Assembly (NCBI RefSeq): GCF_022846255.1
Contig: NZ_AP025682.1
DNA length: 64,000 nt
Strand: one strand, 5' to 3'
Source: Escherichia coli
GTDB taxonomy: Bacteria; Pseudomonadota; Gammaproteobacteria; Enterobacterales; Enterobacteriaceae
The notes below the pieces were generated by a model. It had not been told where the DNA came from, did no database searches, and saw nothing but the letters and a program-made list of their open reading frames with translations. The translations under genes were made by a program, and so were the position numbers. Shown piece by piece: positions 61,014-62,326 of this stretch. The stretch's first letter is position 1. Each line of letters opens with the position of its first letter.

Positions 61014-61601
61014 ATGAAAAAAAAGGTTCTGGCAATAGCTCTGGTAACGGTGTTTACCGGTACAGGTGTAGCGCAGGCTGCTGACGTAACAGCTCAGGCT
61101 GTAGCGACCTGGTCAGCAACAGCCAAAAAAGACACCACCAGTAAGCTGGTTGTGACGCCACTCGGTAGCCTGGCGTTCCAGTATGCCGAAGGCATTAAAG
61201 GTTTTAACTCACAAAAAGGTCTATTTGACGTGGCTATCGAGGGTGACTCAACGGCTACCGCCTTTAAACTGACCTCACGCCTTATCACCAACACCTTAAC
61301 CCAGTTGGATACCTCAGGTTCCACACTGAATGTGGGCGTGGATTATAACGGCGCGGCAGTCGAAAAAACTGGCGATACCGTGATGATCGATACCGCCAAC
61401 GGCGTACTGGGCGGCAACCTTAGCCCACTGGCTAACGGTTACAATGCCAGCAATCGTACCACCGCACAGGATGGTTTCACTTTCTCCATCATCAGCGGCA
61501 CCACCAATGGTACCACCGCAGTAACCGATTACAGCACTCTACCGGAAGGCATCTGGAGCGGCGACGTTAGCGTACAGTTCGACGCTACCTGGACCAGTTA
61601 A
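61014..61601 (+). CDS. ecpA: E. coli common pilus major subunit
   Basis: 195-aa ORF with signal peptide and Thr/Ser/Gly-rich pilin-like composition. Confidence 0.9.
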
Positions 61602-61616
61602 TCTCTCTGATGTACC

Positions 61617-61640
61617 AGCAGGGGTACCCCCCTGCTTTAT
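61617..61640 (+). terminator. hairpin attenuator after ecpA (AGCAGGGG-loop-CCCCTGCT, then TTATT)
   Basis: 8-bp GC-rich stem followed by U-rich tract between pilin and chaperone genes. Confidence 0.5.
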
Positions 61641-61657
61641 TCCTGGACGGAATTGTT

Positions 61658-62326
61658 ATGAAAAAGCACCTTCTGCCTCTCGCTCTGCTGTTTTCCGGAA
61701 TATCACCGGCCCAGGCGCTGGATGTCGGCGATATATCATCGTTTATGAACAGTGACAGCAGCACGCTAAGCAAAACGATCCAAAACAGTACCGACAGTGG
61801 CCGCCTCATCAATATCCGTCTCGAACGGCTCTCTTCACCGCTTGACGACGGGCAGGTTATCGCAATGGACAAGCCGGATGAGTTGCTACTCACTCCCGCC
61901 AGCTTGCTGCTACCCGCCCAAGCCAGCGAAGTGATCCGCTTCTTCTATAAGGGACCAGCAGATGAAAAAGAGCGCTACTACCGCATTGTCTGGTTTGATC
62001 AGGCCCTCAGTGATGCGCAGCGCGATAATGCCAACCGTAGCGCTGTGGCCACTGCTTCCGCCCGCATCGGCACCATTCTGGTCGTCGCACCCCGCCAGGC
62101 GAACTACCACTTTCAGTACGCCAACGGCTCCCTGACAAATACAGGAAATGCGACGTTGCGGATCCTCGCCTACGGCCCCTGCCTGAAAGCCGCCAATGGT
62201 AAGGAGTGTAAAGAGAATTACTACCTGATGCCGGGCAAGTCGCGTCGTTTTACCCGCGTGGACACGGCGGATAACAAAGGACGGGTTGCACTTTGGCAGG
62301 GTGATAAGTTCATTCCCGTGAAATAG
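61658..62326 (+). CDS. ecpB: common pilus periplasmic chaperone (start at [11 protein letters not shown] begins 61610)
   Basis: Signal peptide plus 222-aa body in ecp operon order. Confidence 0.85.

Follow-up and report, generated by a model that had tools for sequence, protein, structure and literature searches.

The 56-nt gap between the major pilin gene ecpA and the chaperone gene ecpB of E. coli was found to hold a G-C-rich hairpin followed by a T-rich tract. This element, at 61617-61643, was assigned as a Rho-independent (intrinsic) terminator that acts on the ecp sense RNA with less than full efficiency, at a probability of about 0.75. Most likely, it is an ordinary leaky terminator, i.e., one that allows more pilin message than chaperone and usher message. 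The element looks like an intrinsic terminator in its conserved position, its compensatory stems, and its T-run, which is limited to the six bases after the stem. From the sequence, we infer both termination at 61617-61643 and its efficiency.

Organization of the ecp locus

The analysis covered a 64-kb stretch of DNA, hereafter the window, which is identical here to E. coli Nissle 1917. Gene identities follow the RefSeq records of E. coli genomes that are identical or nearly so. The first gene of the ecp operon is ecpR (matA; 60397-60939, + strand), which encodes a LuxR-type activator and was placed by the ORF list and by RefSeq for the identical Nissle 1917 record. The major pilin gene ecpA (matB) follows at 61014-61601 (+ strand), as given by the ORF list and RefSeq, with Pfam family PF16449 assigned on homologues. 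Its stop codon, TAA, lies at 61599-61601. The next gene, ecpB (matC; 61658-62326, + strand; ORF list and RefSeq), encodes a periplasmic chaperone and would be the first gene dependent on read-through. The ATG of ecpB lies at 61658-61660, which leaves the gap of 56 nt. An in-frame upstream ATG at 61610, giving a 238-aa ecpB product, was considered and dropped, because it has no Shine-Dalgarno sequence and is not conserved. The annotated ecpB start gives a normal signal peptide.

Structure of the hairpin

The terminator hairpin lies at 61617-61636 on the + strand and was recognized by sequence, terminator scan, folding, conservation, covariation, and covariance model R1. It is composed of a 5' arm (61617-61624, AGCAGGGG), a loop (61625-61628, TACC), and a 3' arm (61629-61636, CCCCTGCT). 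By the terminator scan, the stem has 8 pairs, six of them G-C, and the loop has 4 nt. A 15-nt spacer (61602-61616, + strand) separates the ecpA TAA from the hairpin and should keep a ribosome halted at the stop codon off the stem. In the orthologues, the median distance from the stop codon to the G-C core is 17 nt. From the end of the stem (T61636) to the ecpB ATG there are 21 nt, and the main stem leaves the ecpB Shine-Dalgarno sequence uncovered.

The tail after the stem reads TTATTCCTGG. With the closing A-U pair counted in, it becomes TTTATTCC (61636-61643, + strand), i.e., 5 T in 8 bases, which is the U-tract of the RNA and the predicted site of the RNA 3' end. The tract is short and has 5 T in its first 6 bases, with an interruption (UUUAUUCC). 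It falls within the definition of a terminator U-tract but is weak and mediocre, and the efficiency of termination could be low with such an interrupted tract. A change from TTTATTCC to TTTTTTTT would strengthen it.

The hairpin folds with -15.1 kcal/mol (z = -3.26), and an equally good fold was obtained in 1 of 200 shuffles. It makes up approximately 75% of the ensemble when the 34-nt segment is folded alone, and when 67 nt or 221 nt of context are folded, both the minimum-energy and the centroid structure retain it. The 221-nt prediction showed no alternative or competing structure. The hairpin together with a T-run was present on the coding strand only, as the reverse strand has no T-run. 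The first-pass annotation had reported a G-C-rich 8-bp stem and a T-rich stretch in the 56-nt gap, and both its coordinates and its sequence were as described. It had called the element an intrinsic attenuator; read as a leaky terminator, this was borne out by all testable sequence-level predictions, i.e., strand, conservation, fold, and the absence of a promoter.

How often such an element would arise by chance was estimated with a strict pattern that demands a perfect stem of 7 or more pairs, 6 or more of them G-C, a loop of 3-8 nt, and 5 or more T within the 8 bases that follow. Six strict hairpins were counted on both strands of the window, against 0.6 ± 0.76 in dinucleotide shuffles, which is an approximately 10-fold enrichment. 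The chance of a strict hairpin on the right strand within the 56-nt gap is roughly 3 in 10,000. The looser terminator-scan pattern alone was not enriched in the 6-kb region (8 found, 6.1 ± 2.3 expected). In the window, covariance model R1 matched the hairpin alone, plus its own reverse strand, and it matched once per related locus. An Rfam scan of 59000-64000 with E up to 1 gave no match. This single match in the window and in each related locus speaks against a REP/BIME or other repeated palindrome.

Conservation and covariation

Forty-seven ecpA-ecpB gaps, i.e., 46 loci and the window, were compared. They included gaps from Escherichia, Klebsiella, Raoultella, Enterobacter, Pantoea, Citrobacter, and Phytobacter, and also from Kosakonia, Pluralibacter, Cedecea, Serratia, Symbiopectobacterium, Morganella, and Erwinia. 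A G-C-rich hairpin with a T-run was found at the same place in 42 of the 47 gaps, from about 20 genera across Enterobacterales. A clean G-C-rich stem of 5-11 bp, with a median of -14.4 kcal/mol, was present in 41 of the 47, and one further gap showed a bulged stem. The stem itself varies among clades, with at least six sequences (GCAGGGG, GGCGGG, GGGCAG, GGAGCG, GGGTGGGCA, and CGCTGCC).

In the sequence-only MAFFT alignment, eight of the nine stem pairs were altered on both sides, i.e., by compensatory changes. The paired cells amounted to 91.2%, compared with 82.1 ± 1.0 in shuffles, and none of 500 shuffles reached 91.2%. The covariation score was 0.354, compared with 0.210 in shuffles (0/500) and 0.13-0.19 with the partners slid. 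These pair counts were taken from MAFFT alignment A2; the alignment of the covariance-model search was left unused, because the site is palindromic and that alignment mixes both strands. Some stems contain G-U pairs, which are C-A mismatches on the opposite strand. These pairs point to the sense RNA, rather than to a DNA palindrome.

The T-run is confined to the stem side of the tail. In the 41 orthologues, T content fell from 78% at tail positions 1-6 to 23% at positions 7-12, and 31 of them have five or more T among the first 6 tail bases. An approximate d'Aubenton-Carafa-type score was above zero in 33 of 41 orthologues and reached +12 in the window, and it is only indicative, as its energy parameters differ from those of the original method. 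Two Tatumella orthologues have gaps of 28-31 nt with no hairpin, so the operon can exist without the element. In two species, mobile-looking insertions were placed exactly at the hairpin.

Within E. coli, the region was present in 4966 of 5426 complete genomes. The common alleles vary in the loop (TACC, TAGCC, and GCCA), with the stem unchanged. All O157:H7-type genomes carry an A.A stem mismatch, which weakens the hairpin from -15 to -10 kcal/mol. O157:H7 tolerates this mismatch, and this was counted against the terminator reading. The same stem variant (T61633A) is a natural allele with which the effect of the element could be tested.

Read-through and transcript evidence

In the search for sigma-70-like promoters, no site was found on the + strand at 61014-61657, i.e., in ecpA and the gap. 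Published RT-PCR products cross the hairpin (PMC5962669). Placed on the window, the amplicons correspond to 61606-62385 and 60996-61655, and both span it. This support for read-through is qualitative and not strand-specific, and an antisense transcript exists in the region. Because no promoter-like site lies between the hairpin and ecpB and RNA crosses the hairpin, the terminator after ecpA must be leaky. In Nissle RNA-seq, ecpR, ecpA, ecpB, and ecpC change together, in fold changes and not in absolute levels. A processed ecpA mRNA with regulated stability has been reported (Lehti 2013, as summarised in PMC5962669), and the account given in PMC5962669 adds that MatA/EcpR affects ecpA mRNA stability and that ECP expression responds to temperature, pH, and acetate. 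In the accessible literature, no description of a terminator in the ecp/mat operon was found, and an earlier description is possible.

The ecp operon is repressed by H-NS and little expressed in K-12 under conditions such as those used for Term-seq. In K-12 Term-seq in three conditions, no sense-strand 3' end was listed for ecpA or ecpB (PMC7815308). This missing 3' end is weak counter-evidence, because the operon is thought to be silent there. The same data contain a 3' end of an antisense RNA inside ecpA, at 61362 of the window (position 310323 on the + strand of MG1655; PMC7815308). Further 3'-end and decay data sets gave no usable ecp entry. The promoter search for this RNA gave two weak candidates only. 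The antisense RNA may run across the complement of the terminator.

Stem-loop upstream of ecpA and second hairpin

Another stem-loop, GGGAC-TTCAT-GTCCT, lies at 60975-60989 (+ strand), 24 nt before the ecpA ATG, immediately downstream of an AU-rich stretch. Stem-loops with varying stems, 23-26 nt before the ATG, were found in Escherichia, Klebsiella, Raoultella, Phytobacter, Citrobacter, and Pantoea, and none was seen in the Serratia group. They are weak, i.e., -4 to -7 kcal/mol, and RNAalifold gave no consensus structure for the region upstream of ecpA. The stem-loop at 60975-60989 may cap the processed ecpA mRNA at its 5' end.

Folding also predicted a weak second hairpin, ATTCC-TGGAC-GGAAT, at 61639-61653 (+ strand), which overlaps the likely ecpB Shine-Dalgarno sequence GGA (61649-61651). 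It contains the motif TTCCT (61640-61644) within a TTCC-N5-GGAA inverted repeat. The second hairpin and the TTCCT motif are confined to E. coli and are missing from the Klebsiella and Raoultella gaps.

Proposed mechanism

In the proposed mechanism, RNA polymerase would start upstream of ecpR. After 61617-61643 is transcribed, the 8-bp G-C-rich hairpin would form beside a U-rich RNA:DNA hybrid (UUUAUU). Some polymerases would then release an ecpR-ecpA RNA or, once it is processed, an ecpA-only RNA. The remaining polymerases would continue into ecpBCDE, genes without a separate promoter. The short RNAs would end in the hairpin, which would shield them from 3'-to-5' exonucleases. By the logic of papBA, pilin message would therefore exceed chaperone and usher message through both synthesis and stability.

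A more elaborate version may also be drawn. In it, ecpA would be a hairpin-capped module with the 5' stem-loop on one side and the leaky terminator on the other, where read-through sets the ratio of pilin to assembly proteins and is tuned by stem mutations, as in O157:H7, and by the antisense RNA. This version is speculative and was considered rather unlikely.

Alternative explanations

Four alternatives were weighed. The hairpin could be an RNA-stability element only, i.e., an endonuclease would cut downstream, and 3' exonucleases would trim the RNA as far as the hairpin, so that a stable ecpA mRNA persists. The processed ecpA mRNA with regulated stability, as summarised in PMC5962669, fits this explanation, and intercistronic G-C-rich stem-loops protect upstream segments in many operons (PMC5927463). 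The imperfect U-tract and the absence of a terminated sense 3' end in K-12 Term-seq also agree with it. However, a pure exonuclease barrier needs no T-run, and here the run that adjoins the stem is kept across genera, with sequence beyond it that is not T-rich. The stem length, the loop of 3-6 nt, and the T-run at distance 0 have the geometry of an intrinsic terminator. A role in stability alone is thus unlikely, with perhaps an outside chance of being right. The two roles are compatible, and the terminator explanation already includes 3' protection, so part of the pilin excess may stem from the hairpin as a 3' exonuclease barrier and not from termination. A strict regulated attenuator, where a terminator/antiterminator switch, or a target of a protein or an antisense RNA, sets read-through by condition, is improbable. 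No competing fold was predicted in the 221-nt context, the hairpin dominates the ensemble, and neither a leader peptide or ORF nor a conserved upstream complementary segment was found. Regulation of this kind would suit the variation of ECP expression with temperature, pH, and acetate and the effect of MatA/EcpR on ecpA mRNA stability, as far as PMC5962669 describes them. It would also suit the K-12 antisense RNA that ends inside ecpA, which would be complementary to the hairpin if it started in ecpB, but the promoter-like sites for it are only weak.

It is very improbable that EcpR, RcsB, or another regulator binds the site as a DNA palindrome, or that the site is an operator for ecpB translation, rather than a terminator. 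TTCCT, which Martinez-Santos et al. are said to have reported in 2012 as the motif of EcpR boxes, lies 4 nt downstream at 61640-61644, inside the inverted repeat that overlaps the ecpB Shine-Dalgarno sequence. However, this motif and the second hairpin occur in E. coli only, and chance alone would place a given 5-mer about once in every 500 nt. Between genera, the pairing of the palindrome is kept and its sequence is not, and the G-U pairs are a signature of RNA structure. An operator role is opposed by the position of the main stem, which stops 21 nt before the ATG with the Shine-Dalgarno sequence free. That the hairpin arose by chance, or is left over from a repeated or mobile element (REP/BIME/MITE), and plays no part in ecp expression is highly improbable. 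In favour of this, the looser pattern shows no enrichment within the 6-kb region, and the mobile-looking insertions exactly at the hairpin in two species would be in keeping with a remnant. However, the strict pattern stands approximately 10-fold above shuffles, and the hairpin is conserved with covariation in about 20 genera. The covariance model finds a single site per locus, so the element is not repeated, and Rfam gave no repeat-like family.

Significance

Among the adhesive pili of E. coli, ECP/Mat is the most widespread, and Klebsiella, Serratia, and related genera carry it as well. A pilus requires far more pilin subunits than ushers or chaperones, and a leaky terminator after ecpA is a simple route to this from one promoter. 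For RNA-seq or RT-PCR of the "ecp operon", this means that ecpA levels need not reflect the levels of ecpB-E. The element also bears on the design of expression constructs, and it may help to explain strains that transcribe ecp genes yet make no pili. It is of an ordinary textbook type and leaves the thinking of the field unchanged.

Comparison with known systems

The ecp element shares with an intrinsic terminator the G-C-rich stem-loop, the adjoining U-tract, the strand and position, and a structure that is kept over sequence. Like generic Rho-independent terminators of enterobacteria, it has a G-C-rich stem of 7-8 bp, a 4-nt loop, and a T-run at the stem base, and it lies about 16 nt after a stop codon, on one strand only. 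Unlike them, it sits inside an operon, with the following start codon 21 nt away, and its U-tract is interrupted (UUUAUUCC). Therefore, partial termination is expected rather than the end of an operon.

Stem-loops for differential decay are known inside operons, e.g., in cfaAB of CFA/I fimbriae and as the REP elements of malEFG (PMC5927463). They resemble the ecp case in the intercistronic hairpin after the most-needed product and in the unequal mRNA levels from one promoter. However, a U-tract is not required in these elements, and some of them are repeats of the REP type, whereas the ecp hairpin is single-copy and its T-run is conserved. A terminator between mrkA and mrkB of Klebsiella was not used as a parallel, because Wilksch 2011 does not describe one. 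In the fimA-fimI region of E. coli K-12, the gap after the major pilin gene has 64 nt and also holds a stem-loop. This stem-loop differs in that it has no T-run, was not reported by the terminator scan, and folds no better than shuffles (z = -0.07). Because fimA-fimI lacks the terminator features, the ecp arrangement is not general to all fimbrial operons.

The papBA transcript carries an intrinsic terminator after papA and is processed by RNase E in the papB-papA interval (Baga et al. 1988; Bricker and Belasco 1999; both as summarised in PMC5927463). The two operons share the order of regulator, major pilin, hairpin terminator, and assembly genes, a processed, more stable pilin mRNA is reported for both, and both have a small stem-loop before the pilin start codon. 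The terminator hairpin of papBA doubles as 3' protection, and the same role is proposed for ecp. As in a partial terminator of the pap type, the ecp element lies between the pilin and assembly genes, and the downstream genes depend on read-through. In contrast, EcpR is of the LuxR type and not of the PapB type, EcpA (PF16449) has no sequence relation to PapA, and the hairpins have no sequence similarity; RNase E cleavage and the role of the 5' stem-loop are only putative in ecp. The first-pass annotation had called this a classic fimbrial-operon arrangement. In view of K-12 fimA-fimI, with its stem-loop that has no T-run, the description is not universal, but it holds for operons of the pap type.

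Structure of the ecpA-ecpB hairpin

According to RefSeq, both for K-12 and for the identical record, the ecp operon holds ecpR (60397-60939), the major pilin gene ecpA (61014-61601), the chaperone gene ecpB (61658-62326), and the usher gene ecpC, all on the + strand. The gap from the ecpA TAA (61599-61601) to the ecpB ATG (61658) is 56 nt. The first-pass annotation had described a GC-rich 8-bp stem followed by a T-rich stretch in this gap after the pilin gene, and the sequence read at 61599-61658 agrees, i.e., 5' arm AGCAGGGG (61617-61624), loop TACC, 3' arm CCCCTGCT (61629-61636), and the tail TTATTCCTGG directly 3' of it, all on the + strand. 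Eight pairs, six of them G-C, and a 4-nt loop were recognized by terminator scan. The RNA fold has an energy of -15.1 kcal/mol and takes up 75% of the ensemble (z = -3.26; 1/200 shuffles equally good). It was unaltered in the minimum-energy and centroid structures of the 67-nt and 221-nt contexts, in which no competing fold was predicted. GGTACATC, which has no T-run, follows the stem on the reverse strand; the element is therefore directional, in the same orientation as the operon.

A loose terminator pattern showed no local enrichment (8 found vs 6.1 expected). The strict pattern, i.e., at least seven perfect pairs, at least six G-C pairs, and at least five T within the following 8 bases, was enriched, with six in the window on both strands vs 0.6 +/- 0.76 in dinucleotide shuffles. 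These few hairpins include two on the minus strand (43650-43675 and 11744-11761) and a strong palindromic one at 24514-24539 (CCGCGCCAT...ATGGCGCGG), which carries T-runs on either side, counts on both strands, and looks like a bidirectional terminator.

An ATG at 61610 (+) would extend ecpB by 16 codons in frame through the hairpin (61610-61657). It is probably unused, because it has no Shine-Dalgarno sequence and is unconserved in other genera, and because a normal signal peptide results from the annotated start.

Conservation across Enterobacterales

EcpA is highly conserved, at 75% identity or more, over many Enterobacterales. By EcpA-alignment scan with one genome per species, 47 loci were collected, and both ecpA and ecpB were placed in 46 loci (K-12 among them) plus the window. 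The gap was mostly 49-82 nt long. A clean G-C-rich stem of 5-11 bp, closed by a 3-7 nt loop, was found in 41 gaps, with a median energy of -14.4 kcal/mol. By median, the G-C core starts 17 nt past the ecpA stop and ends 23 nt ahead of the ecpB ATG; one further gap, of Kosakonia oryzendophytica, holds a bulged version. Two Tatumella species have gaps of 28-31 nt without the hairpin, and in one Enterobacter locus the copy is degenerate and adjoins a disrupted ecpA. The gap has grown through 200-nt-scale insertions at the hairpin to 256 nt in Klebsiella indica (L005 3586-3847) and to 188 nt in Serratia grimesii (L029 3586-3780). The K. indica insert is flanked by imperfect hairpin copies and has a REP-like GTAGGCCCGAGTAAGCGAAGCGCCACCGGGCA inside. 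In Klebsiella spallanzanii, a second ecpA-like gene (L037 3001-3669), 71% identical and without ecpB behind it, has its own terminator-like hairpin, GTCGGGGG-GAGTTT-CCCCCGAC followed by TTTTGT (3642-3669); the canonical ecp locus (L017) is on the same contig.

The stem sequence is not conserved and differs between clades, i.e., GCAGGGG(G) in Escherichia, Klebsiella, Raoultella, Enterobacter, and Pantoea, CAGGGGG in the Serratia proteamaculans group, GGCGGG in S. marcescens and Symbiopectobacterium, GGGCAG in Morganella, GGAGCG and GCAGGAGCGA in Kosakonia, GGGTGGGCA in an uncultured enterobacterium, and CGCTGCC in Erwinia oleae. Covariation was searched in a sequence-only MAFFT alignment of 39 sequences; its most divergent members are misaligned and so weigh against the structure. 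Paired cells made up 91.2% vs 82.1 +/- 1.0 in shuffles (0/500 reached this value), and eight of the nine stem pairs had changes on both sides. The covariation score was 0.354 vs 0.210 in shuffles (0/500) and 0.13-0.19 with partners slid by 1-3 columns, and the same helix was recovered by RNAalifold. Several orthologous stems use G-U pairs, which are possible on the sense RNA only. The T-run is also conserved: T content among the 41 orthologues is 78% at positions 1-6 after the stem vs 23% at positions 7-12, and 31 of them have at least five T among the first six tail bases. With a covariance model trained on 23 of these sequences, each locus yielded a single site (along with its own reverse strand), and the 64-kb window yielded only the ecpA-ecpB hairpin, which is thus not a repeated element.

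Alleles within E. coli

Across 60940-61700, the window shares 100% identity with E. coli Nissle 1917. Of 5426 complete E. coli genomes, 4978 carry this region and 4966 carry the 91-nt hairpin region, the latter with few matches below 95% identity. The loop is the only difference among the Nissle (TACC), K-12 (TAGCC), and divergent L002 (GCCA) alleles, which fold equally well (-15.1, -15.0, and -16.6 kcal/mol, respectively). The exception is the O157:H7 lineage (L051 122-156), in which T is changed to A in the 3' arm at the equivalent of 61633 (CCCCAGCT), giving an A.A mismatch in the stem, with -9.9 kcal/mol and z = -1.2 (vs -15.0 kcal/mol). This allele is matched at 99% identity or more by 307 records, EDL933 among them. 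In strain OkiPb01676 (L050 2540-3713), the IS4-family element IS421 lies within the hairpin 3' arm, and the match to the window stops at approximately 61632. The genes ecpB to ecpE are missing there, and rayT and yafL come next.

Proposed partial termination and read-through

The best-supported reading of the element is an intrinsic terminator of partial efficiency. A share of polymerases would halt after ecpA, and the remaining ones would go on into ecpBCDE. The hairpin would become the 3' end of a short RNA, which it should shield against 3' exonucleases. The structure, its direction and uniqueness, and its conservation with covariation and an adjoining T-run are observed, and termination by polymerase and its efficiency are inferred.

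Such a terminator must be leaky, because only 21 nt lie between the stem and the ecpB start codon, no + strand promoter was found by promoter scan in ecpA or the gap, ecpR, A, B, and C respond jointly in Nissle RNA-seq, and RT-PCR products cross the hairpin. In addition, Martinez-Santos et al. (2012) reportedly found that one promoter, upstream of ecpR, drives the whole operon. In the atypical EPEC study (PMC5962669), the 'ecpB' product maps to window 61606-62385 and the primer at the end of the 'ecpA' product to 61636-61655; both therefore require RNA running past the hairpin and T-run. They were obtained in every strain and medium, as a qualitative result that is not strand-specific. A processed ecpA mRNA has also been reported, stabilised by MatA/EcpR at low temperature, at acid pH, or with acetate (Lehti 2013, via PMC5962669).

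The interrupted U-tract UUUAUUCC suits a terminator of moderate strength. A d'Aubenton-Carafa-style score, only indicative with modern energy parameters, was +12 in the window and above 0 in 33 of 41 orthologues. In K-12, the ecp operon is repressed by H-NS and poorly expressed in LB or M63-type conditions. K-12 Term-seq in LB at two densities and M63 lists no sense 3' end of ecpA or ecpB (PMC7815308) and, at this poor expression, neither supports nor refutes termination.

Alternative explanations

The main rival is a hairpin that serves RNA stability alone. The conserved T-run speaks against it, and a stability role is compatible with, and part of, the terminator model. A DNA palindrome bound by protein, or an ecpB translational operator, is likewise disfavoured, since pairing rather than sequence is conserved, G-U pairs are in use, and the stem stops short of the Shine-Dalgarno sequence. 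Nearby lies a second, weak hairpin with TTCCT, the motif reported for EcpR boxes (ATTCC-TGGAC-GGAAT, 61639-61653, +), which overlaps the likely ecpB Shine-Dalgarno GGA (61649-61651). It is confined to E. coli alleles, which also speaks against a DNA site or operator.

A chance hairpin or repeat element is excluded by the unique covariance-model site, the strict-pattern enrichment, and the stem covariation. Nothing supports a true terminator/antiterminator switch, as no alternative fold was predicted.

Antisense RNA within ecpA

An antisense terminator-like hairpin, TTGGCGGTATCG-ATCATCA-CGGTATCGCCAG followed by TTTTTT, was found inside ecpA on the minus strand (61362-61399; hairpin 61369-61399). 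It is intact solely in Escherichia and two other loci. K-12 Term-seq lists an 'antisense ecpA' 3' end at MG1655 310323 (+), exactly at this sequence, in three entries of about 1100-2240 reads (PMC7815308, Supp. file 1). In promoter search for the antisense RNA, only weak promoter-like sites were found (61728-61699 and 61480-61453). If the RNA starts in ecpB, it would traverse the complement of the ecpA-ecpB terminator. This 3' end and the O157:H7 stem mismatch are the loose ends of most interest.

Comparison with known systems

The putative terminator is annotated in neither RefSeq nor Rfam, where the hairpin matched no family. No description of it was found in the literature covered, within which, at least, it is undocumented.

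The reading matches the papBA paradigm, and the element may act like the terminator after papA. As outlined by Dar and Sorek (PMC5927463), in papBA RNase E cuts between the regulator and pilin genes, the upstream part decays, and the pilin mRNA is shielded by a 5' stem-loop and the 3' terminator. The ecpR-ecpA spacer has a small stem-loop resembling the 5' one of papA, GGGAC-TTCAT-GTCCT (60975-60989, +). It is located directly 3' of an AU-rich stretch, with 24 nt between it and the ecpA ATG. Klebsiella, Raoultella, Phytobacter, Citrobacter, and Pantoea have variant stems at equal distance. RNAalifold gave no consensus structure for this weak stem-loop, and as a candidate ecpA 5' element it is a lead only. 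The 'classic fimbrial-operon arrangement' of the first-pass annotation holds for pap-type operons but is not universal. Unlike the ecp gap, the K-12 fimA-fimI gap (L052 2050-2113) has a stem-loop, GGGCAGGG...CCCUUGUGC, without a T-run; the terminator scan did not pick it up, and the fold is no more stable than those of shuffles (z = -0.07). The ecpA-ecpB element belongs to a well-known, ordinary kind and would work like generic enterobacterial intrinsic terminators.
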